From NCBI GenBank assembly GCA_019359045.1, contig JAHHIA010000002.1, forward strand, positions 116,401 to 180,400: a stretch of DNA of 64,000 bases, in the 5' to 3' direction. Below are positions 30,849-61,184 of the stretch, piece after piece. Position numbers and translations under genes: made by a program. The first letter of the stretch is position 1, and each line of letters opens with the position of its first letter. The DNA is from Scytolyngbya sp. HA4215-MV1. Lineage in GTDB: Bacteria; Cyanobacteriota; Cyanobacteriia; Leptolyngbyales; Leptolyngbyaceae. The notes under the pieces were generated by a model. That model saw nothing but the letters and a program-made list of their open reading frames with translations, made no database searches and was not told the origin of the DNA.

Positions 30849-31289
30849 CTAAGCAAGCATGCGTTTTAAAAGTTGTTTTGACCCATCAACATCTTCACAT
30901 TCGTGAGAGGTAATAATTCTTGTTGACTCGTCAAAATTCATGATCACTAAAAAACTACGCTGAATATATTCTCCCATCAAAAGATATTGAAACTCACCAT
31001 GAATATAGTGTTTATATGCTTCTTCAAATTTCATACTAAGGTTAAGATTTGAGCCAAATTCTTCAGGCTTGACAGAAAGAAAGTGAATTTCTACTCGACT
31101 TCTGGGAGGTAAAGAACCTAATCTCAGTTTGTAATCCAAAGCAGGACGGCTACCTACCCTAGTGCGATCGCCCCTCGCCGTAGGTTGGGTTGAGCAAGTC
31201 AACCCCTTCTGCATCAACGAGCGTGATATTTGTAACGAAACCCAACAGCTTACCGATCCAGCAACACCCTTGGAAAGATGGAAAATCAT
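30849..31289 (-). CDS. hypothetical protein, co-transcribed downstream of the flotillin-like gene
   Basis: 4-nt start/stop overlap with the flotillin-like ORF; no domain recognised. Confidence 0.4.
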   Translation of the reverse strand: MIFHLSKGVAGSVSCWVSLQISRSLMQKGLTCSTQPTARGDRTRVGSRPALDYKLRLGSLPPRSRVEIHFLSVKPEEFGSNLNLSMKFEEAYKHYIHGEFQYLLMGEYIQRSFLVIMNFDESTRIITSHECEDVDGSKQLLKRMLA

Positions 31290-32716
31290 TCATCCGGTTC
31301 ATGATTATCAGGGCGCTTAAAGATGTCCTGCGTTAAATTTGACAGCCCTGCCAGAAAGCCCAAGAGCGGATTGACCAGACCCTCTTGCGCCTCTGAGGTA
31401 ATGATGGTCGTGCGTTGTTCTTGAGGCGTGGGTAGGTGTCGGGCAATGTCGGGTAATTGCGCGATTAACTGAGCCTGAATATGACGATCGGACAGTTCAT
31501 TTTCAATCTGACGCTGCTTGCGATCGAGATCCAATTGCCGATCGCGTTGAGTCATATCAGCCTGGTTCTGTAATTCCTGCACCTCTAGTCCAGCAGAGGC
31601 TTGTGCCAGTGTTTTCTGAGCCTGGATGGCATCCAACTGAATTTGTTGCTGCACCTTCTCCATTTCAGCAGTGATGCGTTGTTTTTCCAGCTCCAGCTCT
31701 TGCAACACCAACTCTAATTGAGCCTGGTTGCGAGCCTGGGCAGTACGGTTCTGTTCTGCCAAAATCTGACGCTCAGCCTCCTGTTCTACCTGGTTACGGC
31801 GCAATTTCTCCGTCTGTTCACGATCGTAGGCAATGCGGGTTTGCTCAGCTCGGAGTTGGGCAATTTCGCTGGCAACATTCAGTTCCCCGCGCTCACTACT
31901 CAGGCGATTCGCCAGTTCGCGAGCAGTGATTTCCTGATCACTTTCCAGTTGTGCCAGCCGCGCCAGTTTTTCCCGTTCGGCGCGGAAAGGAGTTTGCAAG
32001 TTGTGCCATAACTGGGTTGAACTGACGATCGCTTCCTTAATCTGAACCGTCACAATCTTGAGACCCAACCCCTCCGAGGGAGAATGCCTGCCCTCCTCCC
32101 CGCCACTGCCCTCAGCCACCGTTTGCAAGCGATGGGTTAGCTCCTCAATAATCGGTTGTTTGTCACTTAAAACTTCATCAATGCTGAGCGTAGCAACTTT
32201 ATCTTTAATGGCAGCTTCCGCCTGTTCGCGCAACTGCAAGTTGACAATGCCCATCGGGTCTTCTGGATCAGAAAAGTCCAGTTTCCGGTATGCCGTTTGA
32301 ATATCGTTAATAATCCATTGCACATAAGCTTGTACCAACAATCCTTGCCGTTCAATACAGATGCAGTTGGCGTTGATCAAAATGGTTTGAACCGCAGCAG
32401 GAATCACCAAAAAGGCATCCGTGAGGGGATTGAAACGAAAGGAAATGCCTTGACCGATGTGTAAGGGGGTACGGTGTCCGCGTCGAGTATGGACGGTGTA
32501 GACATTGGGCGGCACAATGACACTTTTCCAGATCCAGACCCCAGTGATGCGGTAATCGATCGCCCGGCTGGTCGGCGGCGACGTTCCTCCCAATGGAGCC
32601 GGAGCAGCTCCTGGAGCCACTGGAGCACGACGACTGCGGCTGAGCTGGCGATCTACCTCAGCTTTTTCTTGCAGGACTTGTTGGAGGTAGGTATTTTCTG
32701 CGGGTTGTTTACTCAT
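31286..32716 (-). CDS. Flotillin-like SPFH/band-7 domain protein
   Basis: The SPFH-like core is LHIGQGISFRFNPLTDAFLVIPAAVQTILINAN...GLLVQAYVQWIINDIQ. A long charged coiled-coil follows (AEQTRIAYDREQTEKLRRNQVEQEAERQILAEQNRTAQARNQAQLELVLQELELEKQR...), as in bacterial flotillins. The N-terminus is Pro/Ala-rich and low-complexity. Confidence 0.6.
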   Translation of the reverse strand: MSKQPAENTYLQQVLQEKAEVDRQLSRSRRAPVAPGAAPAPLGGTSPPTSRAIDYRITGVWIWKSVIVPPNVYTVHTRRGHRTPLHIGQGISFRFNPLTDAFLVIPAAVQTILINANCICIERQGLLVQAYVQWIINDIQTAYRKLDFSDPEDPMGIVNLQLREQAEAAIKDKVATLSIDEVLSDKQPIIEELTHRLQTVAEGSGGEEGRHSPSEGLGLKIVTVQIKEAIVSSTQLWHNLQTPFRAEREKLARLAQLESDQEITARELANRLSSERGELNVASEIAQLRAEQTRIAYDREQTEKLRRNQVEQEAERQILAEQNRTAQARNQAQLELVLQELELEKQRITAEMEKVQQQIQLDAIQAQKTLAQASAGLEVQELQNQADMTQRDRQLDLDRKQRQIENELSDRHIQAQLIAQLPDIARHLPTPQEQRTTIITSEAQEGLVNPLLGFLAGLSNLTQDIFKRPDNHEPDE

Positions 32717-38728: not shown

Positions 38729-38959
38729 CCTTTGAAGCACTACCGGGAGCATCATTGGGCATGGGATCAGTTTTCACTAAAAGCCCCCAGACGTCTGACC
38801 TTGTTTCGACTCCGGGGGCTCGTTAGTTTTCTGTTCACTCCTCACACAAGCCAATCATGCCGCAGACGTTCCCAGATTTCTGTCTTTCTTATTACAAAAC
38901 TTCAAAATCACTCTGGAGTAGGACTGAAAGCGCCAACAAAGCTGAACAGTCGGCATAAT

Positions 38960-49176: not shown

Positions 49177-50259
49177 ATGGTGAATTTTTCGAACAATCCC
49201 CTCAGCAAACTAGCCGTTGCACTGCTTGGCGCAACGGTTTCCCTATCGCTGTGGTCAGGCAATGCAGCAGCCCAAGTCCGGCAATCTGGAACCTTTCAGG
49301 CAACGCAAAATTGCCTGGCATCGCGGGCAATTAATGGCGCCAATCCAGAGAATGTGCGGTTGGTGGTCGGGCAGCGCTACGAACTGGTCGGCTTCAATAG
49401 TCCTGCTCGCAAATATGTTTTGCTGAAAGTGCCGAATGCAACGCCGAATCAGCGCTGGGTCAGTGCAAGCTGTGGTCAAGTAGCCATCTCCAATAGCACG
49501 CCCACACCCATGCCCGATCGCCCTCAAACGCCTGGATCGGGATTTCTGCCCTTTTTCGACCAAATCAATAACCCCGTCAACGTCAACGTTTCGCCCAATC
49601 ACAGCAAAGTCGATATCTCCCCCCCACCGCCACTACTCAAAGACTTCGATCGAGCGATTCTGAAAACTTGCGGACCCATTGGCAGCAAAGTCAATGCCAA
49701 CTCAATCCGACAACTGCTCACTCGCTCTCCCAACCTGGTCAAAGCAGCCCAACAACAGGTAGGCGGTGAACTGTTGCCAGGTCGCTCGACCGAAAGCGAA
49801 TTTTTGGATGATCTGGTGGCAGTCTGGTCCAAGCGATCCGGGTTTGAGCACATTTTTTGTGGGGAATTAGAAAGTGCTCAAAAGATTGGGGGATTGCACT
49901 TTGTGGGACGTTATCTGCAACTACAAGAACAAGGGATTGGGGGTCGCCTGCCCAACAACGCTAGCAAAGAAGAAGTCATTCCGGGAGTGGTTTACACCCT
50001 GGGCATCGTGATTCGTCAAGGCAACCGCACCTTCTCAGACGATCTCAAAGGCTATCCCTATGTTTCGGATGGACAGGAACTGTTCTTAGCAGCGATCGCG
50101 CTGTTAAAGGCGCAGGGAAATGCCCAAGGTGCCTGCATTGCAACCGTTGCCGATCGGGATAGCGGCAAGTCCTATTCCGCAATCTTCGTCAAGGATCGAG
50201 ATGCGATCGTGACGTTCTATCCTGATGCCACCCCCAAAGGGAAAAGTTGCCGCCCGTAA
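49177..50259 (+). CDS. Secreted EndoU/XendoU-like endoribonuclease domain protein
   Basis: Signal peptide (LAVALLGATVSLSLWSGNAAAQ). The C-terminal region SGFEHIFCGELESAQKIGGLHFVGRYLQLQEQG aligns by eye with the XendoU signature GFEHVF[VL]GE...SGFHNW..FY..E..G, which carries the two catalytic His residues. Confidence 0.5.
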   Translation: MVNFSNNPLSKLAVALLGATVSLSLWSGNAAAQVRQSGTFQATQNCLASRAINGANPENVRLVVGQRYELVGFNSPARKYVLLKVPNATPNQRWVSASCGQVAISNSTPTPMPDRPQTPGSGFLPFFDQINNPVNVNVSPNHSKVDISPPPPLLKDFDRAILKTCGPIGSKVNANSIRQLLTRSPNLVKAAQQQVGGELLPGRSTESEFLDDLVAVWSKRSGFEHIFCGELESAQKIGGLHFVGRYLQLQEQGIGGRLPNNASKEEVIPGVVYTLGIVIRQGNRTFSDDLKGYPYVSDGQELFLAAIALLKAQGNAQGACIATVADRDSGKSYSAIFVKDRDAIVTFYPDATPKGKSCRP

Positions 50260-52149: not shown

Positions 52150-53155
52150 GTAGCTAGTCGGAATTAAATTTAAAACGCTCCAGTGTATATTGACCTTTGA
52201 CACTGCGTGTTTCCATACCATCTATGATAGCGAGAGCTAAATCATATTCATCTTCAAACATTCATTCTGCAATTTCGTGTGTTTTCAGTTAATGCCATTC
52301 CTCTTCAATCCGATTCATTTGAGAACAATACTCTGGTAGGAAGAATAGAAATAATCCCTGCTCTTGCCAGCGTTGCCACTGTTGCTGAGTCAGCTGACTG
52401 GTATGCAAAGAGCCGTTGTCCTGAACAATTACCGTTATCGACCTGTTTGAGCCAGGGTTTGAGCTGCCTTGTCTGCTCCCCAATCCGTCACTTTGATTTA
52501 AGTCGGACTCTTGAAACTCCCACACACAAGCGCATAGTCAAAGCTTGTGTCGGGTTGCCAAAGTCCTAAAATGCTCATACGTCTGCCGCGTCGCTCGGTC
52601 TGCTCCAACCGCTTTTGCTCTCCAATGCGACTCTAGCTGTAGTTGACTAGACTCCACAAACAGCATCCAGATTCATCGAGGTATTTCAAGTCAATGTAGC
52701 CATCTTATGCTGCTAACTTTAGCGTACCCAGGTCGGCTTATTTGATCCGTTGGTGCTCAGGGTCTTGTTTGCCTCGGTGCGAATGTCGGGTTCGTTTCCA
52801 GCGAAAGCCCTTTTTTGCAGAATGTGCCGCACTCACCGTGCGCTCAGCTTGACCTGACGGTCACTGCTCAATTTTTGGGCTAGCTGTGAACTGTTGTAGG
52901 TGCGTGGGTCTTGCTCTATCCGCTGCTCAACCGCTTCCAAATCGGCTTCCTGCCATTGACGCTTGGCTCCACGTCCAGGGGCTTCCCACAAACCGCCCAG
53001 TCCATTCTGCTGCGAGCGTCGCAGGGTTTGTTCGTGACACTCAAAAATCTCAGTGATTGCTGGCGCCGTTTATCCTTGAGCATTGAGTCGAATCATATGA
53101 GCACGATCACGGGTTCGCTGCGGTACCGTAATGGCAAGCCGTAATTCGACCAGTG
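52150..53155 (-). mobile_element. IS630/Tc1-family insertion sequence with a disrupted transposase (pseudogene)
   Basis: Minus-strand frames carry an HTH-type transposase N-terminus with stops (...QWQEADLEAVEQRIEQDPRTYNSSQLAQKLSS...) and the DDE C-terminus (IVQDNGSLHTSQ...GLFLFFLPEYCSQMNRIEEEWH* then ...FEDEYDLALAIIDGMETRSV). Imperfect terminal inverted repeats: CTAGTCGGAATTA at about 52168 and TAATTCGACCAG at about 53143. Confidence 0.6.
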
Positions 53156-53281
53156 TCCGATTCTCTTCAGAATTCAAAATTAGATGAATTGGAGCAGGCA
53201 TAGGAGTGGAGTAAAATCAATTTAAATAGTCTTCCTGTCTTAGTTTTAATGGTGCCGACTACTTAATGAATGAGCTCGTTT

Positions 53282-56137
53282 CTATCGTAATGGTTGCCAG
53301 TTTCCTGAGGGGATGAAACTTGCCCAATAATAGGGATGAGAACGATCCTGGCTTTTTAGCATCTCCAATTGAGTTTGCCGCAGGGCTTCACTACGTCCTT
53401 GTCCTGCCAAAAGCTTCTGGTAGTAGCTCACTATCAATTCCTGCGTCGCGTCATCTGCGACTTTCCAGAGGCTAATGACCTGACTTTCGGCACCAGCAAT
53501 GACCAGTGCTCGTCGCAGACCGTAGATACCTTCTCCCGTGGAAAGACGACCCAGTCCAGTGTCACAGGCAGAAAGTACGACCAGTTGGGTGCCTAACAGG
53601 TTTAGGTTGGCCACTTCGAGAGCAGTGAGCACGCCATCTTCCCGGTTTTGCGGTTTGAGTTTGAAGCCTGCCAGCACCAGGCCAGAAAGAAGCAGGGGAT
53701 TATCAGTAAGTGTTGTTTCTGGTAGGTCAGGTTGAAGCGTAGGCGTTACAAAGAAGCCGTGGGTCGCGATGTGCAGAATGCGAGGACGATTGACCTGCTT
53801 GACCGCTTCTTCAGTTGCTTGGGAGCCAGTGAGCGGTTGGACATTGAGTAGGGGGGCAATGGCGTTGATTTCTTGGGCTGTGCCAGGAAGGGAAGGGAAA
53901 TCTTGTTGCGTCAGGTCAATCGTCCGAGTTCTGATATTTTGTTCAGCTTTTAGGGATGGTACTGGAGCCACGTCTCCCAGTTTGGCAAAGTAAGGATCAG
54001 CCATCAGGACAGGGGGAGACTGGCTGGGGACAGAGTTCGCCAGTCGCAGCAGATCTCGACCGGAGGTGAGGTAGGTAAAAGAATAAGCTTCGACCAGGTA
54101 GCGGTTGGTGTCATCTACCAGGGCTTCAAAGGGGATGAGATTGAGGTTGCCGTCAGGGGAAAGCAAGACAGTATGGGTATCGCCCAGGAGATTGCGAACA
54201 GGCTGCATTACCAATTTCTCTAATTCATGGGAAGGGGGTTGCAGTTGGTTCGCTGGAGTGTTTGAGTCTCTAAGGACAGAGCGGAAGTTTTGTAGTGACT
54301 GATTGATCGCCTCAGCGTCACCCAGGTCAATGCCTTTTGGATTTCCCTGCGCATGTAGCACATAGGCAGCATAACGTGTACTCAAGCCATTTTTAGCTGA
54401 TGATTTTGGGTTAAAGACCCGGTATTGCACAAATTCGACTAAGGCAGCATTGGTAGGAATTAAAGATTGAATGGCATCGATCGTTACTGGTCGAGATAGA
54501 TTCCGAAAAACGGTGCTGCGTCGGCTCAATTCATCTTCCTGTTGTCTCAATCGCTCTTCCAGTGCTGCAACTTGGGTCTGGTATTGATAACGATCGAGGG
54601 GCTGTTGTTGAGGCGAAGCAAACACAAGTTTGGCAAGTTGATCACGGGTTGCAAATACACGATCAAGGCGATCGCGATCTGCCGAAGCAACCTGTTGTCG
54701 CAGAATCCGTTGCAGATTGGCAGAAAAATCGAGTGCTCGCCCTTTGCGTTGTAGAATTGCCGTGAATGCCAGTCGTGCCGCAGCAGGATTGTTGGGTAGT
54801 TGTTGCAAATGCAGGGCAATTTTGTTATCCAGGGCGATCGCAGTATTTTCCAGGATGCTGCGCCGATTGCTCTCAGAAGCGTTGGCAAGATTGAGCGCCA
54901 GGCTATATTCTTCAATCGCCTGAACCTGCCATAGTAATTCCAGGGAACGATCGACCTTCCCCTGCTTAAGATAGAGTTTTGCCAAATTTTCTAGATCCCA
55001 GGCGACTGCATAGCCGTTTTCCCCAAATTCTCGGCGATGATGCTCCAAACTTTGCAAAAAGACCGTTTCTGCTTCCGCATCGCGCCCTTGTTGCAAGTAA
55101 AGGAACCCTAATTGGCTGGGGTTAAAGCGACTCTGTTCTTCTGGGATTGCATTTTGCGAGGCATTATTTTGAGATAGGTGACGATTTAGCTCAAAGACTT
55201 GTTTGTAAAGTCTCTCGGCTTTATCAGAGCGTCCCTGATCAGCATAAAAAAGTGCCAGACTGTTTAGACTTTCCAATACTTTCGGGTCCGTTGCTCCATA
55301 CAGACGACGTTTGATTTCCAGAGACTCCCGGTAGAACTCCTCAGCTTCTACGCTGCGCTTTTGTAGTGCATATAGAAATGCCAGTTGATCCAGATACAAC
55401 AGGGTCTCAGACTGATCGGTGCCAAAGGTCTGACGACTGGCTTTTAAGGCGCGTTCAAACAGGAGCGTGGCTTCGGCATAACGCTCTTGCGCCATGTAAT
55501 TCCAGCCTAAAGCTCTGAGACTGTTGAGCACATCTGGATGATTGGGTTCCAAAAGGGCTTCGCGAATTGCTAAGGCACGTTCAGCCAGGGGAAAGGCTTC
55601 TTTGTACTGTCCTTGACTGAATAGGAAGGATGCCTGAACCCATAGTTGCTCTGCCTGGTGCAGATCTTCGGGTTGGATGGCGGTGGGTGCCAGATTCCAG
55701 GTTAGGGTGTAGCGACCAAAGGTGTAGTCGGCAAAGATGCTCGATCGCTGACTCGCTGCCAAAACGGTATACGTACCTGTGGCAGGTAAGGTCACCACTA
55801 GGCGGGCGTTCGTACCGCCAGTGCCAATGCCACCTTCCGCAATTTTGTTGCCAGTGGGGTCGAGCAAAATCAGGTAAGTATCAAACTCGTCACTGGTCAG
55901 ATCAATTTTGATTTTCTGTCTAGCGGTGCCCCAAAAGGGATGGGCGTTGAAGTAAGTGCTGTCTCCCAACTGTTGACTGGTGCGATCGAGCCTGCCCTGC
56001 ACGGTTGATTGCTGCGATCGCTGGTCTGAAACTGCACTTCCCGATTGTGCCAGTGTTGCTGCTGGTAAGCAAACCGAAAAGCCGACGAGCATCAGGGCAG
56101 CGAATCGGCAGGCAGATCGATTGCAGGAATCAGTCAT
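53282..56137 (-). CDS. Secreted TPR-repeat CHAT-domain (caspase-like) protein, with an N-terminal PPC-like beta-sandwich
   Basis: Signal peptide MTDSCNRSACRFAALMLVGFSVCLPAATLAQ. There are eight or more TPR-like 34-aa repeats (AEEFYRESLEIKRRL..., AERLYKQVFEL...). The C-terminal CHAT domain has the His/Cys dyad context HIATHGFF and VVLSACDTGLG. Confidence 0.8.
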   Translation of the reverse strand: MTDSCNRSACRFAALMLVGFSVCLPAATLAQSGSAVSDQRSQQSTVQGRLDRTSQQLGDSTYFNAHPFWGTARQKIKIDLTSDEFDTYLILLDPTGNKIAEGGIGTGGTNARLVVTLPATGTYTVLAASQRSSIFADYTFGRYTLTWNLAPTAIQPEDLHQAEQLWVQASFLFSQGQYKEAFPLAERALAIREALLEPNHPDVLNSLRALGWNYMAQERYAEATLLFERALKASRQTFGTDQSETLLYLDQLAFLYALQKRSVEAEEFYRESLEIKRRLYGATDPKVLESLNSLALFYADQGRSDKAERLYKQVFELNRHLSQNNASQNAIPEEQSRFNPSQLGFLYLQQGRDAEAETVFLQSLEHHRREFGENGYAVAWDLENLAKLYLKQGKVDRSLELLWQVQAIEEYSLALNLANASESNRRSILENTAIALDNKIALHLQQLPNNPAAARLAFTAILQRKGRALDFSANLQRILRQQVASADRDRLDRVFATRDQLAKLVFASPQQQPLDRYQYQTQVAALEERLRQQEDELSRRSTVFRNLSRPVTIDAIQSLIPTNAALVEFVQYRVFNPKSSAKNGLSTRYAAYVLHAQGNPKGIDLGDAEAINQSLQNFRSVLRDSNTPANQLQPPSHELEKLVMQPVRNLLGDTHTVLLSPDGNLNLIPFEALVDDTNRYLVEAYSFTYLTSGRDLLRLANSVPSQSPPVLMADPYFAKLGDVAPVPSLKAEQNIRTRTIDLTQQDFPSLPGTAQEINAIAPLLNVQPLTGSQATEEAVKQVNRPRILHIATHGFFVTPTLQPDLPETTLTDNPLLLSGLVLAGFKLKPQNREDGVLTALEVANLNLLGTQLVVLSACDTGLGRLSTGEGIYGLRRALVIAGAESQVISLWKVADDATQELIVSYYQKLLAGQGRSEALRQTQLEMLKSQDRSHPYYWASFIPSGNWQPLR

Positions 56138-56179
56138 GACGATACTCGCGAGAGAAGAATCGATATGGGAACGATCGGC

Positions 56180-57742
56180 TTACGGTAGGGGTCTCCAATC
56201 GCCGGAAAGAATGAAGCCAGCCCAATAATAGGGATGGGAACGATCGGGACGTTTTAACAGATCCTGTTGAGTTTGCCGTAGGGCTTCGCTGCGTCCCTGC
56301 CCTGCCAATAGCTTTTGGTAGTAACTCACTATCAGATCTTTAGTAGCAGCATCCTCAACTTTCCAGAGGCTGATCAGTTGACTTTCTGCCCCTGCCATAG
56401 TCAGGGCACGCCGCAAACCGTAGATGCCTTCCCCAGCAGAAAGACGCCCCAGTCCTGTATCGCAAGCAGAAAGCACAACAAGTTTGGTGCCCAGCAGATT
56501 CAGACCTGCCACTTCTAGAGCAGTGAGAATGCCGTCTTCTCGATTTTGAGGCTTGAGTTTGAAGCCTGCCAAGACTAAGCCAGACAACAGCAGAGGGTTG
56601 TCGGCAAGGGTGTTTTCTGGTAACTCATTTTGAGTTGTAGGCGTTACAAAAAAGCCGTGGGTGGCGATGTGTAGAATACGAGGACGGTTGACCTGTTTAA
56701 CTGCTTCTTCGCTGGCTTGGCTACCGATTAGGGGGTGAACGTTGAGCAAGGGGGCGATCGCTTCAACTTCCGCAGCAGTTTCAGGCAGCGAGGAAAACGT
56801 TTGTTTGAATAAATTAGTAAAGCTAGTAGATCGCGTTTGGGAATTCTGGTTGATTTGAGAGTGCAGAACTTGGGTAACAGGTTCACCCAGTTTATCGAAA
56901 GTAGGATTGGCTAACAGGACAGCGGCGGTTTGGCTGGGAGAATGGGTTGCCAGACGTAACAGGTCACGTCCAGAGGTGAGATAGGTGAACGCATAGGTTT
57001 CCACTAAATAATGATTGTTCTCATCCACCAGCGCTTCAAAGGGAATCAAGTTGAGTGCACCATCCGGTGAGAGCAAAACAGTTTGAGCGTTACCTAAAAG
57101 TTGACGAACTGGCTGCATTATGAGGGCATCCAGTTTTCGGGCAGCATGTTTGAGTTGTGCTGGCGGAGTTTGCGGATCTCTCAAGGCTGCCCGAAACGTT
57201 TCGATAGCTTGGTTAATTGTAAAGGTGTCTCCCAAATCAATCCCTTGAGATTGTCCCTGAGCAGTGAGGATATAAGCCGCGTAGCGGGGGGCACTAAAGC
57301 CTTTATCGGCTGCAAAGTTCTGACTCATGTAAACTACAGCCAAATTGTGAATGATCGTGGCAGTAGTAGAGTTTGCTGGATTTCCTATCTGCTGATGTAG
57401 CACCAAAGCCTGTTTGAAAAGCGGTTCTGCTTCGGCATAACGCCCTTGATTCAAATAAAGAGATGCGAGGGTATGCAGGCTATCGATGACTGTAAAATCA
57501 TCCTGCTTCAAGCGATGCTGGCGAAGTTCGAGAACTCTCTGTGCTAAGGGAATTGCGTCTCTGAGTCTTCCCTGGGCAATGAATTGGGAGATATGTTGAT
57601 CAAGCCATGCAATTTCTGTAATCTCGGCAGACTGAGGCAGCGGACTGAGGATTTGTCCTTTGACGTGGCTTCCTGCACTTATCAACACGATCGTGAACGT
57701 TAAGGAGGCTAAGAAGCAGTGGACAATTCTCTGCTTTATCAT
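56180..57742 (-). CDS. Secreted TPR-CHAT-domain protein, shorter tandem paralogue
   Basis: Signal peptide MIKQRIVHCFLASLTFTIVLISAGSHVKGQ. The C-terminal 330 aa are near-identical in pattern to the upstream CHAT protein (RYAAYILTAQGQSQGIDLGD...HIATHGFF...VVLSACDTGLG...YYWAGFILSGDW). Confidence 0.8.
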   Translation of the reverse strand: MIKQRIVHCFLASLTFTIVLISAGSHVKGQILSPLPQSAEITEIAWLDQHISQFIAQGRLRDAIPLAQRVLELRQHRLKQDDFTVIDSLHTLASLYLNQGRYAEAEPLFKQALVLHQQIGNPANSTTATIIHNLAVVYMSQNFAADKGFSAPRYAAYILTAQGQSQGIDLGDTFTINQAIETFRAALRDPQTPPAQLKHAARKLDALIMQPVRQLLGNAQTVLLSPDGALNLIPFEALVDENNHYLVETYAFTYLTSGRDLLRLATHSPSQTAAVLLANPTFDKLGEPVTQVLHSQINQNSQTRSTSFTNLFKQTFSSLPETAAEVEAIAPLLNVHPLIGSQASEEAVKQVNRPRILHIATHGFFVTPTTQNELPENTLADNPLLLSGLVLAGFKLKPQNREDGILTALEVAGLNLLGTKLVVLSACDTGLGRLSAGEGIYGLRRALTMAGAESQLISLWKVEDAATKDLIVSYYQKLLAGQGRSEALRQTQQDLLKRPDRSHPYYWAGFILSGDWRPLP

Positions 57743-58836
57743 TAGCTCAATCTCTTTAATAGATGATCAATTTGCTCTTGCAGTACTTCAATCTGCCCGT
57801 CATCCTTTAAGAGCCGATAATTGATTTGGGCATCGCGATACCACTGGAGGGCGATTTTCTCCTGTCCTAGGGATTCCTCGATCGTGCCTAATGCCACGTG
57901 AACTTCTGCCTGCATTTCTACATTCTGTTCAGTTTTCGCCCGTGTCAATGCCTTGAGATACCGTTCTTTGGCAAGCCGAGGTAAACCTACCTGTTGGTAG
58001 AGACTACCTAGCAGCGCATCCAGCACTGAGGCATGGGTAGCGTTATGTGTGGCAACTTCGAGTAAATCGATCGCCTCTGCTTGCAAAGCGTAACTCTGAT
58101 AGAGATACCCCAGCGTCAAAATCTGTATTTCTGGACTGAGCGCATCCCGTTTGACCTGGACAATCTCCTGCTTAACTTTTTGAGCCTGCGTCTCATCCAA
58201 GAAGGCAAAACTCACAGGTAAATCTTGGATGGAAGAAACGCCCGTGTTGGCGGTCACCGTTACCTGGCATCGGAAACCCGGTGTAATTGGCTGATTCACA
58301 GCAGAAAAAGCAGCTTCCGTTTGGCTTACGGTTTTGGACCAGTCAATTCCGCACCCGGTCACTTGTACTTGATACTGAGTTGCACCAACAACGGGATGCC
58401 AGCGTATTGTCACCTCTTGGCTCAGGAGGGTAGTGTTGCGAGGGCTGATGACATAGGGAATGGTTGGATTTTCTCCAGAACGGGTGAAGGTCGTTTTGCG
58501 ATCGCTGCGCCTCAACACAGTTCTATCCCTTAGGTTACACCCCTGAGCCACGGACAAATCCTTGCCTACCGGAACCTGCCAGATTTTGAGATTGGCACAC
58601 ATCACTCTTGCTGAGGCTTGGGTCGAAACTCGAATGCGATCGCCTGGACTCAACAAATCTCCCACAAAGGCTCGTTGATAATCTGAGCGGCTGGGGCGCT
58701 TAATTTCAACCTTCCCATTCCCTCGAATGGTAAGGGCAGAAATATAATTTAGCCCCACAGGCTGAGCCAAACTGGGAGTGGTTGTTCCCACCCATCCTAG
58801 AGTGAGGAGCAGACTAGAGAACCAATTCAATTTCAT
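57742..58836 (-). CDS. Secreted protein with an N-terminal FecR-like/beta-rich region, an FN3/Ig-like segment and C-terminal TPR repeats
   Basis: Signal peptide MKLNWFSSLLLTLGWVGTTTPSLAQ. The central segment TIRWHPVVGATQYQVQVTGCG is FN3-like. The C-terminal segment YLKALTRAKTEQNVEMQAEVHVALGTIEESLGQEKIALQWYRDAQ is TPR-like. Domain names are tentative. Confidence 0.5.
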   Translation of the reverse strand: MKLNWFSSLLLTLGWVGTTTPSLAQPVGLNYISALTIRGNGKVEIKRPSRSDYQRAFVGDLLSPGDRIRVSTQASARVMCANLKIWQVPVGKDLSVAQGCNLRDRTVLRRSDRKTTFTRSGENPTIPYVISPRNTTLLSQEVTIRWHPVVGATQYQVQVTGCGIDWSKTVSQTEAAFSAVNQPITPGFRCQVTVTANTGVSSIQDLPVSFAFLDETQAQKVKQEIVQVKRDALSPEIQILTLGYLYQSYALQAEAIDLLEVATHNATHASVLDALLGSLYQQVGLPRLAKERYLKALTRAKTEQNVEMQAEVHVALGTIEESLGQEKIALQWYRDAQINYRLLKDDGQIEVLQEQIDHLLKRLS

Positions 58837-60113
58837 GGATTTGGCGAAGCTTTTTTTGCAGCATTCATTTTGAGTTGTGCCTCATGCACCCAGACATCTT
58901 CGTCAGGATTTTCGTTCGATGCTAACTCAGCACATTTTTGCCACTGAGCGATCGCACCCGGTAGTTTTTCCTTTTCTAACACTTTAGCCAATAGACAATG
59001 GGCAGATCCAGGAAATTCGATATATTTTTGAGTCTCTGGATCACGGGCAAGACTCACCGCGACCTGTAGAGCAGCCTGAGCCTCGGCAGTACGTCCCTGT
59101 TGCAACCGCACCCATCCCAGATTTTTGAACAGACTGTACTTCATCTCTGGTAGAAGATCTCCAGGTCGCTGTAAGCCCTGCTGCAATAGCACCACTGCCT
59201 CTGGATATCGTTTGTTTCGCAGATATAGCCGACCCAGATTGTTGTAAGCCTCTGGCAGGTCGCCCTTCACCGCAATCAAATACTGTTTCTGAGCCTTGTC
59301 AAATTCCTGCAAATCCTCGTAGAGACTGCCCAGGTTAAAGTGGGCTGCCACATTGTCTGGATTAAGCGCGATTGCCCGCTCATAGTTCTGCACTGCACTG
59401 CCGACCTTGCCTGCATCTGCATCCGCTAGCCCCTGGTGGTTATACCACTCCGAAATCTTAGGCAAACAAAACCAAAAGACCAGTAAAAAAGCCAGAAAAG
59501 TCAGCGTTGCCCCTAAATGCACTTCTTCTCGTAACCGTCGAGGCACACGCCAGCGTTCTAGCAGTTGCTGAAAACCTGCCCATCCACTCTCAGTCAATTC
59601 GTTTTTGGCTTGCAAGAGAGCCAGGATGCTGGGCAGGGCGATCGCGAACACCCCACCTACACCTGGACCTCCCAGCACAAAGCGGCTGATGATATTTGCC
59701 AGTAACCCCAGATTGGTTGCCCAGGTTATCACAGTCAACCCTTTCCAGAAATAGTCAAGTGCATGACTGGGAAGTGAGATCGCATCCAACTGCCACCACC
59801 AGGCATCGCTAGGTGCAGACAAACTACGCCGCAAATCTTCAAAACTAACCGTGCGAGTGAGGCGTTCTGCCTGTTGCTTCAGTTGTTCATCCAGTTGCAG
59901 TAATTGAACAGACTGTTGAGGAGAAATCTGGCGCTGGTTGGTCAGAATCGTTGCCGCGCGATCGCGGGCATTCAGCAGCCGCAAAATCTGTTGGGGCGTG
60001 ATTGAACAATCGGCACTGGTACGGATTTGCTCCAGTTCCGTTTGGTAATGCTCTAGTGCAGAGTTGAAATCGGAGTACATCGGGCAATCTGCTAGTCCTG
60101 GAAAATAAACCAA
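58833..60113 (-). CDS. TPR-repeat membrane protein (cytoplasmic N-domain, 2-3 TM, C-terminal TPR array)
   Basis: Hydrophobic helices GLTVITWATNLGLLANIISRFVLGGPGVGGVFAIALPSILALL and HLGATLTFLAFLLVFWFCL. TPRs include AIALNPDNVAAHFNLGSLYEDLQEFDKAQKQY. The start overlaps the downstream gene by 4 nt, suggesting an operon. Confidence 0.6.
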   Translation of the reverse strand: MVYFPGLADCPMYSDFNSALEHYQTELEQIRTSADCSITPQQILRLLNARDRAATILTNQRQISPQQSVQLLQLDEQLKQQAERLTRTVSFEDLRRSLSAPSDAWWWQLDAISLPSHALDYFWKGLTVITWATNLGLLANIISRFVLGGPGVGGVFAIALPSILALLQAKNELTESGWAGFQQLLERWRVPRRLREEVHLGATLTFLAFLLVFWFCLPKISEWYNHQGLADADAGKVGSAVQNYERAIALNPDNVAAHFNLGSLYEDLQEFDKAQKQYLIAVKGDLPEAYNNLGRLYLRNKRYPEAVVLLQQGLQRPGDLLPEMKYSLFKNLGWVRLQQGRTAEAQAALQVAVSLARDPETQKYIEFPGSAHCLLAKVLEKEKLPGAIAQWQKCAELASNENPDEDVWVHEAQLKMNAAKKASPNP

Positions 60114-60237: not shown

Positions 60238-60532
60238 CTCGGTTCAGATCATCCCGAATGTGAGTCCAGCAGGCTTTTTCCGGCACGAAAAAGATATCGC
60301 GATAAAAAGTTAAATCTTCCAGCCGTTTGGCAATGTCTTCCGCTGACAGCTTTCTTGCCTCCCACTTCTGTTTAAGCTGTTCTCACTGCTGGTCAAATAC
60401 ATCGGATGCCCGCTTCAGAAACAGCATTCCAAAAATGTATTCCTTGAACTCCGAAGTATTCATCTTGCTGCGCAGGATATCCAGTGCTGCAAAGAGATGT
60501 CGTTCAAGTTGGGGAAGGGGCAGTTTACCCAT
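60238..60532 (-). pseudogene. hsdM: Remnant of type I restriction-modification methyltransferase HsdM (N-terminal domain only, with an in-frame stop)
   Basis: The reverse complement reads [99 protein letters not shown]. This is the HsdM N-terminal pattern (W..AD.LRG....EYK..I.GL.FLKRISD); the catalytic domain is absent. Confidence 0.55.
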
Positions 60533-60635: not shown

Positions 60636-61095
60636 TTGGAGGTGATGTCAAAGGCTTCTCCACCCAAAATCTTCCAGAAAGCCATTGCCCTGCGACGGCG
60701 ACGGCATAGTTTAGTAGCTTCGACCATCCAGCAGTATGGCACTCGATTTCGAGGTTCACTGCGGGAGATCTTTAATCTAAAACCCAAATCCGTCGAGGGA
60801 CAGCGGTTGCTCAATGGTATTAGAAAATTCGCGAGTACTTGTTGCTGTTTTTGAGTGATGAGACTATCCCGCCGATGAATAATGCCAGTAAGCAAGCGTT
60901 GCGCTGGAGCGTCATCTTTCGCAAGGTGACCATTGGCTTCCGTTCGGATTGGGGAGCGGAGTTATTCGTTCAAGTGCGCTCGCTGGTCAATACGGCAAAA
61001 CGTCAGGGTATTTCTGCCCTTGATGCCATTGCTCGTGCTATTACCTCACAGCAGACCGAATTGGCTACTGGGTTGAGCAATTACCATTGTTTTAT
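60636..61095 (+). pseudogene. IS66-family transposase C-terminal fragment, frameshifted
   Basis: Two frames together read ...LLNGIRKFASTCC / LLFLSDETIPPMNNASKQALRWSVIFRKVTIGFRSDWGAELFVQVRSLVNTAKRQGISALDAIARAI. This matches the IS66 C-terminus pattern (PPTNNxAE[RQ]ALR..VI.RK...G..S..G). Confidence 0.6.
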
Positions 61096-61112: not shown

Positions 61113-61184
61113 AGCCGATGGCGGGATTTGAACCCGCGACCGCTCGATTACGAATCGAGTGCTCTACCACTGAGCCACATCGGC
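61113..61184 (-). tRNA. tRNA-Thr (anticodon CGU)
   Basis: The reverse complement is GCCGATGTGGCTCAGTGGTAGAGCACTCGATTCGTAATCGAGCGGTCGCGGGTTCAAATCCCGCCATCGGCT. It folds into a cloverleaf with acceptor GCCGATG/CATCGGC, D-arm GCTC/GAGC, anticodon stem CTCGA/TCGAG with loop TTCGTAA, and T-arm GCGGG/CCCGC with TTCAAAT. Confidence 0.85.

Follow-up and report, generated by a model that had tools for sequence, protein, structure and literature searches.

The window analysed here, a stretch of 64,000 nucleotides (nt) from Scytolyngbya sp. HA4215-MV1 (contig JAHHIA010000002.1, positions 116,401 to 180,400 of the forward strand), contains four minus-strand genes, in the order D-C-B-A (53282-60113), that were found to belong to a real, widespread and uncharacterised cassette of cyanobacteria. 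D encodes a membrane protein with tetratricopeptide repeats (TPR), C a predicted exported protein of adaptor-like architecture, and B and A two predicted exported TPR proteins with the caspase-like protease domain CHAT. What is conserved in the cassette is a core of three parts, made up of D, C and one protease or more, and not of four. It is not a categorically new system, but has a precedent in DdvA, a TPR-CHAT protein of Myxococcus xanthus. The four genes of the window are located as follows.

53282-56137, minus strand: gene A, 951 amino acids (aa)
56180-57742, minus strand: gene B, 520 aa
57742-58836, minus strand: gene C, 364 aa
58833-60113, minus strand: gene D, 426 aa from a TTG start

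The open reading frames (ORFs) and the close packing described in the original prediction were reproduced, with overlaps of 4 nt between D and C (ATGA) and of 1 nt between C and B (TAATG) and a gap of 42 nt between B and A; the grouping of D, C, B and A into one operon-like unit is supported. The number of sites returned by a promoter and terminator scan was not above that of shuffled sequence. An alternative start of D, the ATG at 60080, gives a protein of 415 aa; it agrees with the NCBI annotation and with the orthologue, and is more likely to be the true start than the TTG. The product of C is 100% identical to an NCBI protein from the metagenome-assembled genome of Scytolyngbya sp. HA4215-MV1, and the same locus was also present in a Logan assembly.

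The distribution of the cassette was evaluated by scanning one genome per species with the C-family motif. This returned 35 loci, nearly all of them cyanobacterial (Nostocales, Oscillatoriales, Chroococcales, Pleurocapsales, Leptolyngbya-like and Pseudanabaena-like), with one from the Anaerolineales; two loci reached from D homologues brought the number with a C homologue to 37. A true D orthologue, recognised by a match to its N-terminal domain, was found directly upstream and on the same strand in 23 of the 37 loci, and an upstream protein with TPR-only similarity to D in six more. At least 3 kb of downstream sequence could be inspected for CHAT in 31 loci, and a CHAT gene on the same strand was found within 3.5 kb in 22 of these and within 6 kb in three more (25/31). 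Similarly, the independent start from D homologues led to the order D-C-TPR-CHAT again (L037 and L039). The co-occurrence of D, C and CHAT therefore recurs across cyanobacteria, as a core of three parts. Most cassettes contain a single CHAT gene, and the caspase cascade suggested in the original prediction was for this reason rejected as a feature of the family. In many loci the stop codon of D overlaps the start of C, or that of C the start of the protease gene, suggesting translational coupling. When the neighbours were clustered all against all, no other gene family was found to be conserved around the cassette, and a Pfam census of 150 neighbour proteins from the 35 loci gave 236 families, none of them in more than four proteins, and no sigma factor, TpsB or immunity gene. 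D, C and one or more predicted exported proteases therefore make up a self-contained unit that occurs in varied genomic contexts.

Several loci presented other arrangements. In L003 (8667-21050, a Coleofasciculus metagenome-assembled genome), D and C were followed by two signal-peptide-bearing Trypsin_2-WD40 proteins, more TPR/WD40 ORFs and then a TPR-CHAT gene, which indicates that the D-C pair can accompany a serine protease too. The order in the Anaerolineales locus (L023, 234-10996, Chloroflexota) was CHAT, CHAT, two small reverse genes, D and C, and this copy suggests transfer outside the cyanobacteria. In L032 a C-like gene was found with a giant protein bearing a two-partner secretion (TPS) domain and running off the end of the locus. 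An IS630-type transposase was inserted after C in L012, and D was split in L015. Additionally, Fischerella sp. PCC 9605 (L038, 8001-9257) presented an orphan D with only short ORFs after it and neither C nor CHAT, probably a decayed cassette.

Judged by sequence, A and B carry genuine CHAT domains with an intact His-Cys dyad, and both are predicted to be caspase-like cysteine proteases. The Pfam family CHAT (PF12770, cutoff 24 bits) was matched practically over its full length in A (2.4e-85, 286.9 bits, model positions 1-289 of 289) and in B (2e-84, 283.9 bits, model positions 3-289 of 289).

53300-54241, minus strand: CHAT domain of A, aa 633-946, with His793 at nt 53759-53761 and Cys858 at nt 53564-53566
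56198-57145, minus strand: CHAT domain of B, aa 200-515, with His362 at nt 56657-56659 and Cys427 at nt 56462-56464
55760-55939, minus strand: PPC-like domain of A (PF04151, bacterial pre-peptidase C-terminal), aa 67-126, borderline in Pfam

Both proteins contain the motifs HIATHGFF and VLSACDTG, and His793 and Cys858 of A (equivalent to His362 and Cys427 of B) were found by alignment to be invariant in 28 of 28 CHAT domains of cassette neighbours, so that the conserved His and Cys contexts claimed in the original prediction stand. When a profile built from 20 cassette CHAT domains was compared with solved structures, matches were obtained to the TPR-CHAT protein of Sb craspase (7x8a, 1.4e-11), DdvA (8rot, 2.2e-10), Di Csx29 (4e-6) and separase (0.12). 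Counting along the profile alignments, the His and Cys of the profile fall on H585/C627, the catalytic dyad of Sb craspase (PMC9729208), and on H862/C907, the dyad of DdvA in structure 8rot (PMC11506125).

A consists of a signal peptide (about aa 1-30, TLA/QS), a PPC-like beta domain, TPR (about aa 160-410), a helical scaffold (about aa 420-620) and the CHAT domain (aa 633-946), and thus presents the TPR-CHAT architecture, with a TPR array and a helical scaffold N-terminal to CHAT in one chain. B presents it in part, with about two TPR units, its scaffold having been lost with a deletion of 350 codons. The PPC-like domain scored 25.2 bits in the full protein against a cutoff of 25.9 and 28.7 bits on the isolated N-terminus, and a PPC-like region is common to the CHAT partners in L006, L014 and L016. 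The Pfam scan detected a TPS domain (PF05860) in neither A nor B, and all four proteins were without an NTPase domain. PADLOC returned only two weak generic TPR matches and no known defence family, and the NCBIfam matches of the cassette proteins were generic TPR matches only, all of them sub-threshold.

The two CHAT proteins are 69% identical over their last 394 residues; the close C-terminal match noted in the original prediction is thus real, with this figure in place of the 330 aa given there. The closest relative found was a metagenome contig (L037) that has the same four genes, with about 89% identity to the window in each of the four proteins. The suggested recent tandem duplication of A and B was rejected, since the pair is already present in L037. 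In L037, B is an 870-aa protein. Residues 1-141 of the window B match residues 1-141 of this orthologue and residues 142-520 match 492-870; the window B is the 870-aa gene minus exactly 350 codons, in frame, with most of the TPR array and the helical scaffold gone. It retains the signal peptide and about two TPR units, joined straight to a complete CHAT domain.

57319..57320, minus strand: deletion junction in B, codons 141/142 (...VVYMSQ/NFAADK...)

Without its TPR and scaffold, B would be either a deregulated or partner-dependent protease or a gene on its way to loss. The ratio of nonsynonymous to synonymous substitution rates (dN/dS) against L037 was lowest in D (0.14) and highest in C (0.22), with 0.17 both in A and in the retained parts of B, and these values (0.14-0.22) indicate that all four genes were under purifying selection over most of the divergence from L037. 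In L037 the cassette lies among unrelated genes (for a TonB-dependent receptor, for MbnP and for a photosynthetic reaction-centre protein of the Photo_RC family), so that even close relatives do not share its position.

C was found to comprise a signal peptide (about aa 1-24, SLA/QP), a beta domain, a linker, an FN3/Ig-like domain (aa 129-212) and four TPR-like repeats (aa 215-363). Its AlphaFold model (predicted local distance difference test, pLDDT, 85.7) presents a disordered signal-peptide region, a beta domain (aa 28-107), the FN3/Ig-like domain and eight TPR-like helices. TPR had been claimed for all four proteins; the TPR families were strong in A, B and D in Pfam, whereas the match in C was weak (5e-4, below threshold) and its TPR are seen in the eight helices of the model. 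Two Cys residues of the beta domain (C80 and C100) are invariant in the C family, as is the motif IPYxISPRNT that opens the FN3-like domain, and the family profile matched FN3 consensus proteins (E about 2e-4). The top Foldseek match of C was MtxA (4z29, E 5e-6, TM-score 0.69 on the target); 4z29 was not among the best 60 PDB matches of the C-family profile, and no sequence homology to MtxA was detected. FecR (PF04773), which the original prediction had suggested, is not supported, with no Pfam match at E<=10 in the whole protein or in 11 isolated N-terminal domains and nothing useful from a PDB profile search of the N-terminal domain; the fold is MtxA-like (beta, FN3/Ig, TPR). A profile search of 1.84 billion cluster representatives gave 995 representative clusters of the C family at E<=1e-30, the best matches being mostly about 360 aa and full-length, and some being FN3 repeats within giant proteins. 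We infer that C is an exported adaptor of MtxA-like architecture, with a disulfide-containing beta domain, that acts physically with D.

D begins with an N-terminal three-helix domain of about 110 aa, with no signal peptide and about 11 basic residues. The last element of this domain, ahead of the first hydrophobic helix, is a WWWxLD motif that is invariant in the family alignment. Two helices of low hydrophobicity then form a hairpin (about aa 118-168), and beyond a basic loop lie a strong transmembrane helix (about aa 200-219) and, at the C-terminus, the TPR domain (aa 237-422). In the model (pLDDT 82.9), the hairpin region consists of a long helix (aa 118-147) and a short one (aa 154-168), and the long helix that contains the transmembrane segment runs into the TPR domain, the fold of which is closest to PilF-type assembly factors (TM-score on the target, TMt, 0.71), with sub-threshold NCBIfam matches to Tgl and PilW. 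At least 228 representatives of the D family were obtained at 90% clustering, the named ones being cyanobacterial and annotated only as 'tetratricopeptide repeat protein'. A D homologue in L013 (8477-10297) presented a duplicated N-terminal module with the WWW motif twice, which shows that the putative cytoplasmic domain of D is a discrete, repeatable unit.

Signal peptides were judged by inspection of the n-, h- and c-regions and by a hydropathy heuristic. The N-termini of A, B and C each display a basic n-region, an uncharged hydrophobic stretch and a small-x-small site (TLA/QS, VKG/QI and SLA/QP, respectively), and in A and B this is the single N-terminal hydrophobic stretch. Similar N-termini were found on almost every CHAT partner in the other loci, and also on the Trypsin-WD40 and TPS proteins. 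In the C family, 111 of 122 full-length representatives have an N-terminal hydrophobic stretch and 19 are lipobox-like; the rest look like truncated gene calls. At divergent loci the CHAT partners carry a TPS secretion domain (PF05860, 7.5e-37). Additionally, a 746-aa D-C fusion (P0253) was found on seven contigs, with no signal peptide between its D-like and C-like parts, and is followed with a 1-nt overlap by a gene for a 1088-aa signal-peptide-bearing TPR-CHAT protein (L040, 8001-13507, and L041). The fusion points to a functional link between D and C, and the lack of an internal signal peptide suggests that the TPR domain of D lies in the same compartment as the exported domains of C. The neighbours of the fusion in L040 and L041 included a phage-type integrase, CoiA-like nucleases and a transposase. 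Signal-peptide-like N-termini, lipoboxes, invariant Cys residues, TPS relatives and the fusion together indicate that A, B and C are very probably extracytoplasmic, in agreement with the earlier prediction of extracytoplasmic CHAT domains, which is here likewise a prediction. In cyanobacteria, Sec signals may lead to the periplasm or to the thylakoid lumen, and either could be the destination of the exported parts.

The cassette was compared with the systems in which CHAT domains or MtxA-like folds have been described. DdvA of M. xanthus (PDB 8rot/8rw5) is a transmembrane TPR-CHAT anti-sigma factor with a periplasmic CHAT domain (PMC6061681, PMC11506125). Its His-Cys dyad is in a resting state, and its authors propose that self-cleavage in trans starts a regulated intramembrane proteolysis that frees DdvS, a sigma factor of the extracytoplasmic function (ECF) type; DdvA-like proteins have been reported only in Myxococcota and one Comamonas species (PMC11506125). 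This structurally solved periplasmic TPR-CHAT protein qualifies the initial view that the system of the window was undescribed and unlike known TPR-CHAT proteins. The likeness to DdvA extends to a predicted extracytoplasmic TPR-scaffold-CHAT chain with a canonical dyad (the cassette profile matching 8rot at 2.2e-10), to a small cytoplasmic three-helix domain joined across the membrane to periplasmic TPR (here D, as predicted) and to a proposed latent protease activity that signals inward. However, DdvA combines one transmembrane helix and an anti-sigma domain that binds zinc (CHCC) with TPR-CHAT in a single polypeptide, and an ECF sigma gene lies next to its own, whereas the protease of the cassette is a separate, soluble exported protein, D has about three hydrophobic helices and no conserved Cys or His, and the extra adaptor C is always present. 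The CHAT domains of A and B also fill the full Pfam model, whereas DdvA is without three active-site helices.

With craspase (Csx29, of type III-E CRISPR-Cas) and separase, the cassette proteins share TPR followed by CHAT in one chain and an aligned dyad, and the principle of those systems is an allosterically latent protease that cuts the product of a neighbouring gene. They differ in being cytoplasmic, bound to Cas7-11 or securin, and triggered by RNA or the cell cycle, whereas the cassette proteins have predicted signal peptides. No cas-related protein was found when window ORFs were inspected, nor among those neighbours in 35 loci that were conserved or sampled, CRISPR arrays not having been specifically searched for. 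MtxA of Magnetospirillum gryphiswaldense (4z29) resembles C in its signal peptide, beta-rich N-terminal domain, Ig/FN3-like domain and short TPR; it is exported and encoded beside a CHASE2 membrane receptor, and its deletion was without phenotype (PMC4439547). It differs from C in the lack of detectable sequence homology, and its paper names a CHASE2-adenylate cyclase neighbour and no CHAT gene (PMC4439547). A parallel was found in a divergent branch of the loci (L033, 4092-15284, L034 and L036), consisting of an M15 peptidase, a 1478-aa TIRx5-CHASE2 membrane protein, a C-like protein and a TPS-CHAT protein, with a DUF4231/SLATT protein with a chitinase-like domain nearby. The CHASE2 membrane protein takes the place of D in these loci, and its position next to C-like genes, as in the pair of MtxA and CHASE2, suggests that MtxA-like adaptors are general couplers of exported proteins to membrane receptors. 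L027, L033, L034 and L036 resemble TpsA-type systems, pairing a C-like gene with a CHAT protein that bears an N-terminal TPS domain; judging by these relatives, export is routine for CHAT domains that have a C-like partner. A and B differ in having plain Sec-type signal peptides (as predicted) and no TPS domain, and no TpsB transporter gene turned up among the window genes examined. The cassette is thus not a craspase (no cas genes seen), not a STAND system (no NTPase) and not a TpsA system (no TPS domain). Among the papers of the library searched, none was found on this cassette, on an exported cyanobacterial CHAT protein, or on CHAT with two-partner secretion or CHASE2.

By analogy, the cassette may be an envelope sensor-protease module, a split counterpart of DdvA that works without a sigma factor, and we favour this reading tentatively, at somewhat below an even chance. 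D would be an inner-membrane protein, with the three-helix N-terminal domain in the cytoplasm and the TPR domain in the periplasm. The simplest topology of D would be N-in, with the hairpin and one further transmembrane helix and the TPR out; it rests on the argument from the D-C fusion because hydropathy and charge bias do not decide it. On the model of separase, craspase and DdvA, the TPR and scaffold would hold the CHAT domain in a latent state that is released by the binding of a ligand or partner, and the D-C pair would tether or control the protease at the outer face of the membrane. The trigger could be an envelope signal (damage, phage or foreign material), upon which CHAT would cut an extracytoplasmic substrate, most economically D or C, and the direction of signalling would be inward, with the cleavage relayed through the cytoplasmic domain of D. 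What was observed is the anatomy of the genes, the identity of their domains, the conserved dyad, the synteny, the D-C fusion, the purifying selection and the export signals at the N-termini; topology, latency, substrate, signalling direction and trigger are inferred.

Several results weigh against such a module. No ECF sigma gene turned up when ORFs of the window and the neighbours that were conserved or sampled were inspected, and the neighbour surveys showed no cytoplasmic output partner (sigma factor, kinase or regulator) conserved beside the cassette. The N-terminal domain of D contains no invariant Cys or His in the family alignment, and so no zinc ligands of an anti-sigma factor. The positive-inside analysis of D was indecisive, the first two of its hydrophobic helices are weak, and most family members have only two strong hydrophobic windows. 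The CHAT subfamily varies between loci while D and C are constant, which fits equally well with a D-C pair that services varied exported proteases. PADLOC, moreover, found no match to known defence families.

The flanks of the window copy, an IS630 pseudogene on one side and hsdM and IS66 remnants with a tRNA-Thr on the other, were all reproduced as originally described.

52289-53201, minus strand: degraded IS630-type transposase, HTH_32 and DDE_3 fragments in different frames (flank, outside the system)
60383-60532, minus strand: HsdM_N remnant of 49 aa, N-terminus of a type I restriction-modification (R-M) methylase (6.3e-13; flank, outside the system)
60839-61075, plus strand: C-terminal remnant of an IS66-family transposase (4.2e-5; flank, outside the system)
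61113-61184, minus strand: tRNA-Thr, adjoining the IS66 remnant

The position of the window copy between insertion sequence (IS) and R-M debris would suit a second reading, in which the exported CHAT protein serves in conflict or defence outside the cytoplasm, either as a weapon or as a suicide effector, and is directed at phage, competing cells or non-kin, with D-C as a sensor-anchor or securin-like inhibitor. This was considered unlikely, although it draws on several kinds of evidence. The divergent C-like loci join TPS-CHAT with TIRx5-CHASE2 and DUF4231/SLATT, domains typical of conflict systems, and the TIR and SLATT domains give the branch a conflict-system flavour. Some of the cassettes have an integrase, transposase, DpdA, methylase or patatin gene as a neighbour, several genomes have more than one cassette (L008/L025, L014/L020 and several Moorena paralogues), and the protease partner is swapped between loci. 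Nevertheless, PADLOC gave no match, the neighbours in the 35 loci are heterogeneous and without a recurrent defence family, no immunity-like small gene follows the protease, and the L037 cassette lies among ordinary metabolic and photosynthesis genes. The survey of neighbours and the PADLOC result give no support to the view of the original prediction that the genomic context is typical of conflict systems.

A role in maturation or surface assembly appears rather improbable. D and C would then be a pair dedicated, as membrane and periplasmic chaperones or docking factors, to large repeat-containing exported proteases that process or attach surface or matrix proteins. Gingipains, PorU and the MARTX CPD are secreted clan CD enzymes with which such proteases may be compared. 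The constancy of D and C before a variable downstream enzyme (TPR-CHAT, WD40-TPR-CHAT, Trypsin-WD40 or TPS-CHAT) agrees with this role, as do the TPR fold of D, nearest to PilF-type factors (TMt 0.71) and with sub-threshold similarity to Tgl and PilW, and the PPC-like domain of A, as in secreted peptidases. These TPR similarities are, however, generic and far under the family thresholds, no substrate candidate, secretin or outer-membrane component is conserved nearby, and the highly conserved cytoplasmic N-terminal domain of D is left unexplained.

It is improbable that the window copy is decaying accessory DNA, a non-functional remnant amid IS and R-M debris. Such decay is suggested by the loss of 350 codons from gene B, by flanks that consist of pseudogene fragments and by the degraded or interrupted cassettes elsewhere (the orphan D of L038, the split D of L015 and the IS630-type transposase after C in L012), and is opposed by four intact reading frames, by dN/dS values of 0.14-0.22 per gene, the retained parts of B included, by the preserved coupling overlaps and by a deletion in B that is exactly in frame. 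An ordinary cytoplasmic TPR-CHAT system of the STAND or craspase type, with hydrophobic N-termini that are not export signals, was regarded as very improbable, for although most characterised TPR-CHAT proteins (separase, Csx29) are cytoplasmic and the signal peptides here were judged heuristically, an NTPase domain is lacking, cas genes were not seen in the window or in the neighbours examined, the n-, h- and c-regions are kept in nearly all partner proteases, relatives bear TPS secretion domains, and the partner C has lipobox variants and invariant Cys residues.

Other features of the window were also recorded. A gene about 3 kb from the cassette (49177-50259, plus strand), with a gene for an AMP-binding enzyme in between, encodes a 360-aa protein that starts with a stretch resembling a signal peptide and ends in a bacterial EndoU nuclease domain (PF14436, 1.9e-26), a domain commonly found in secreted polymorphic toxins. 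A match to the small RNA Cyano-1 was found at 38777-38851 on the minus strand (45.5 bits against an Rfam gathering score of 41), and a 476-aa ORF at 31286-32716 on the minus strand had no Pfam match at E<=1e-5. A block of low GC content between about 4000 and 23000 (0.38-0.45, against about 0.49-0.53 near the cassette), consists of genes on the same strand, one of them for an ABC transporter ATPase of the Wzt type, and probably represents a gene cluster for surface polysaccharide.

CHAT proteases have been known mainly as cytoplasmic switches (separase and craspase), with DdvA as the only characterised periplasmic one. The predicted exported TPR-CHAT proteins that accompany a membrane TPR protein and an MtxA-like adaptor are common across cyanobacteria, with hundreds to about a thousand clusters, and two large families annotated as 'hypothetical' or 'TPR repeat' thus gain a testable context. 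A further-reaching suggestion, to which we give a low probability, is that the cassette is a trans-envelope module of caspase-like signalling or immunity, in which the exported CHAT protein would sense phage parts, foreign cells or damage and cut D or C, and the response would be given by the WWW domain without a sigma factor; if this were true, MtxA-like adaptors would be general couplers between exported proteases and membrane receptors (D or CHASE2). The cassette suggests a role for the orphan MtxA fold and, being made up of three genes, or of two in the fused form of D and C, lends itself to simple genetic study of the activation and the targets of a caspase-like protease outside the cytoplasm.

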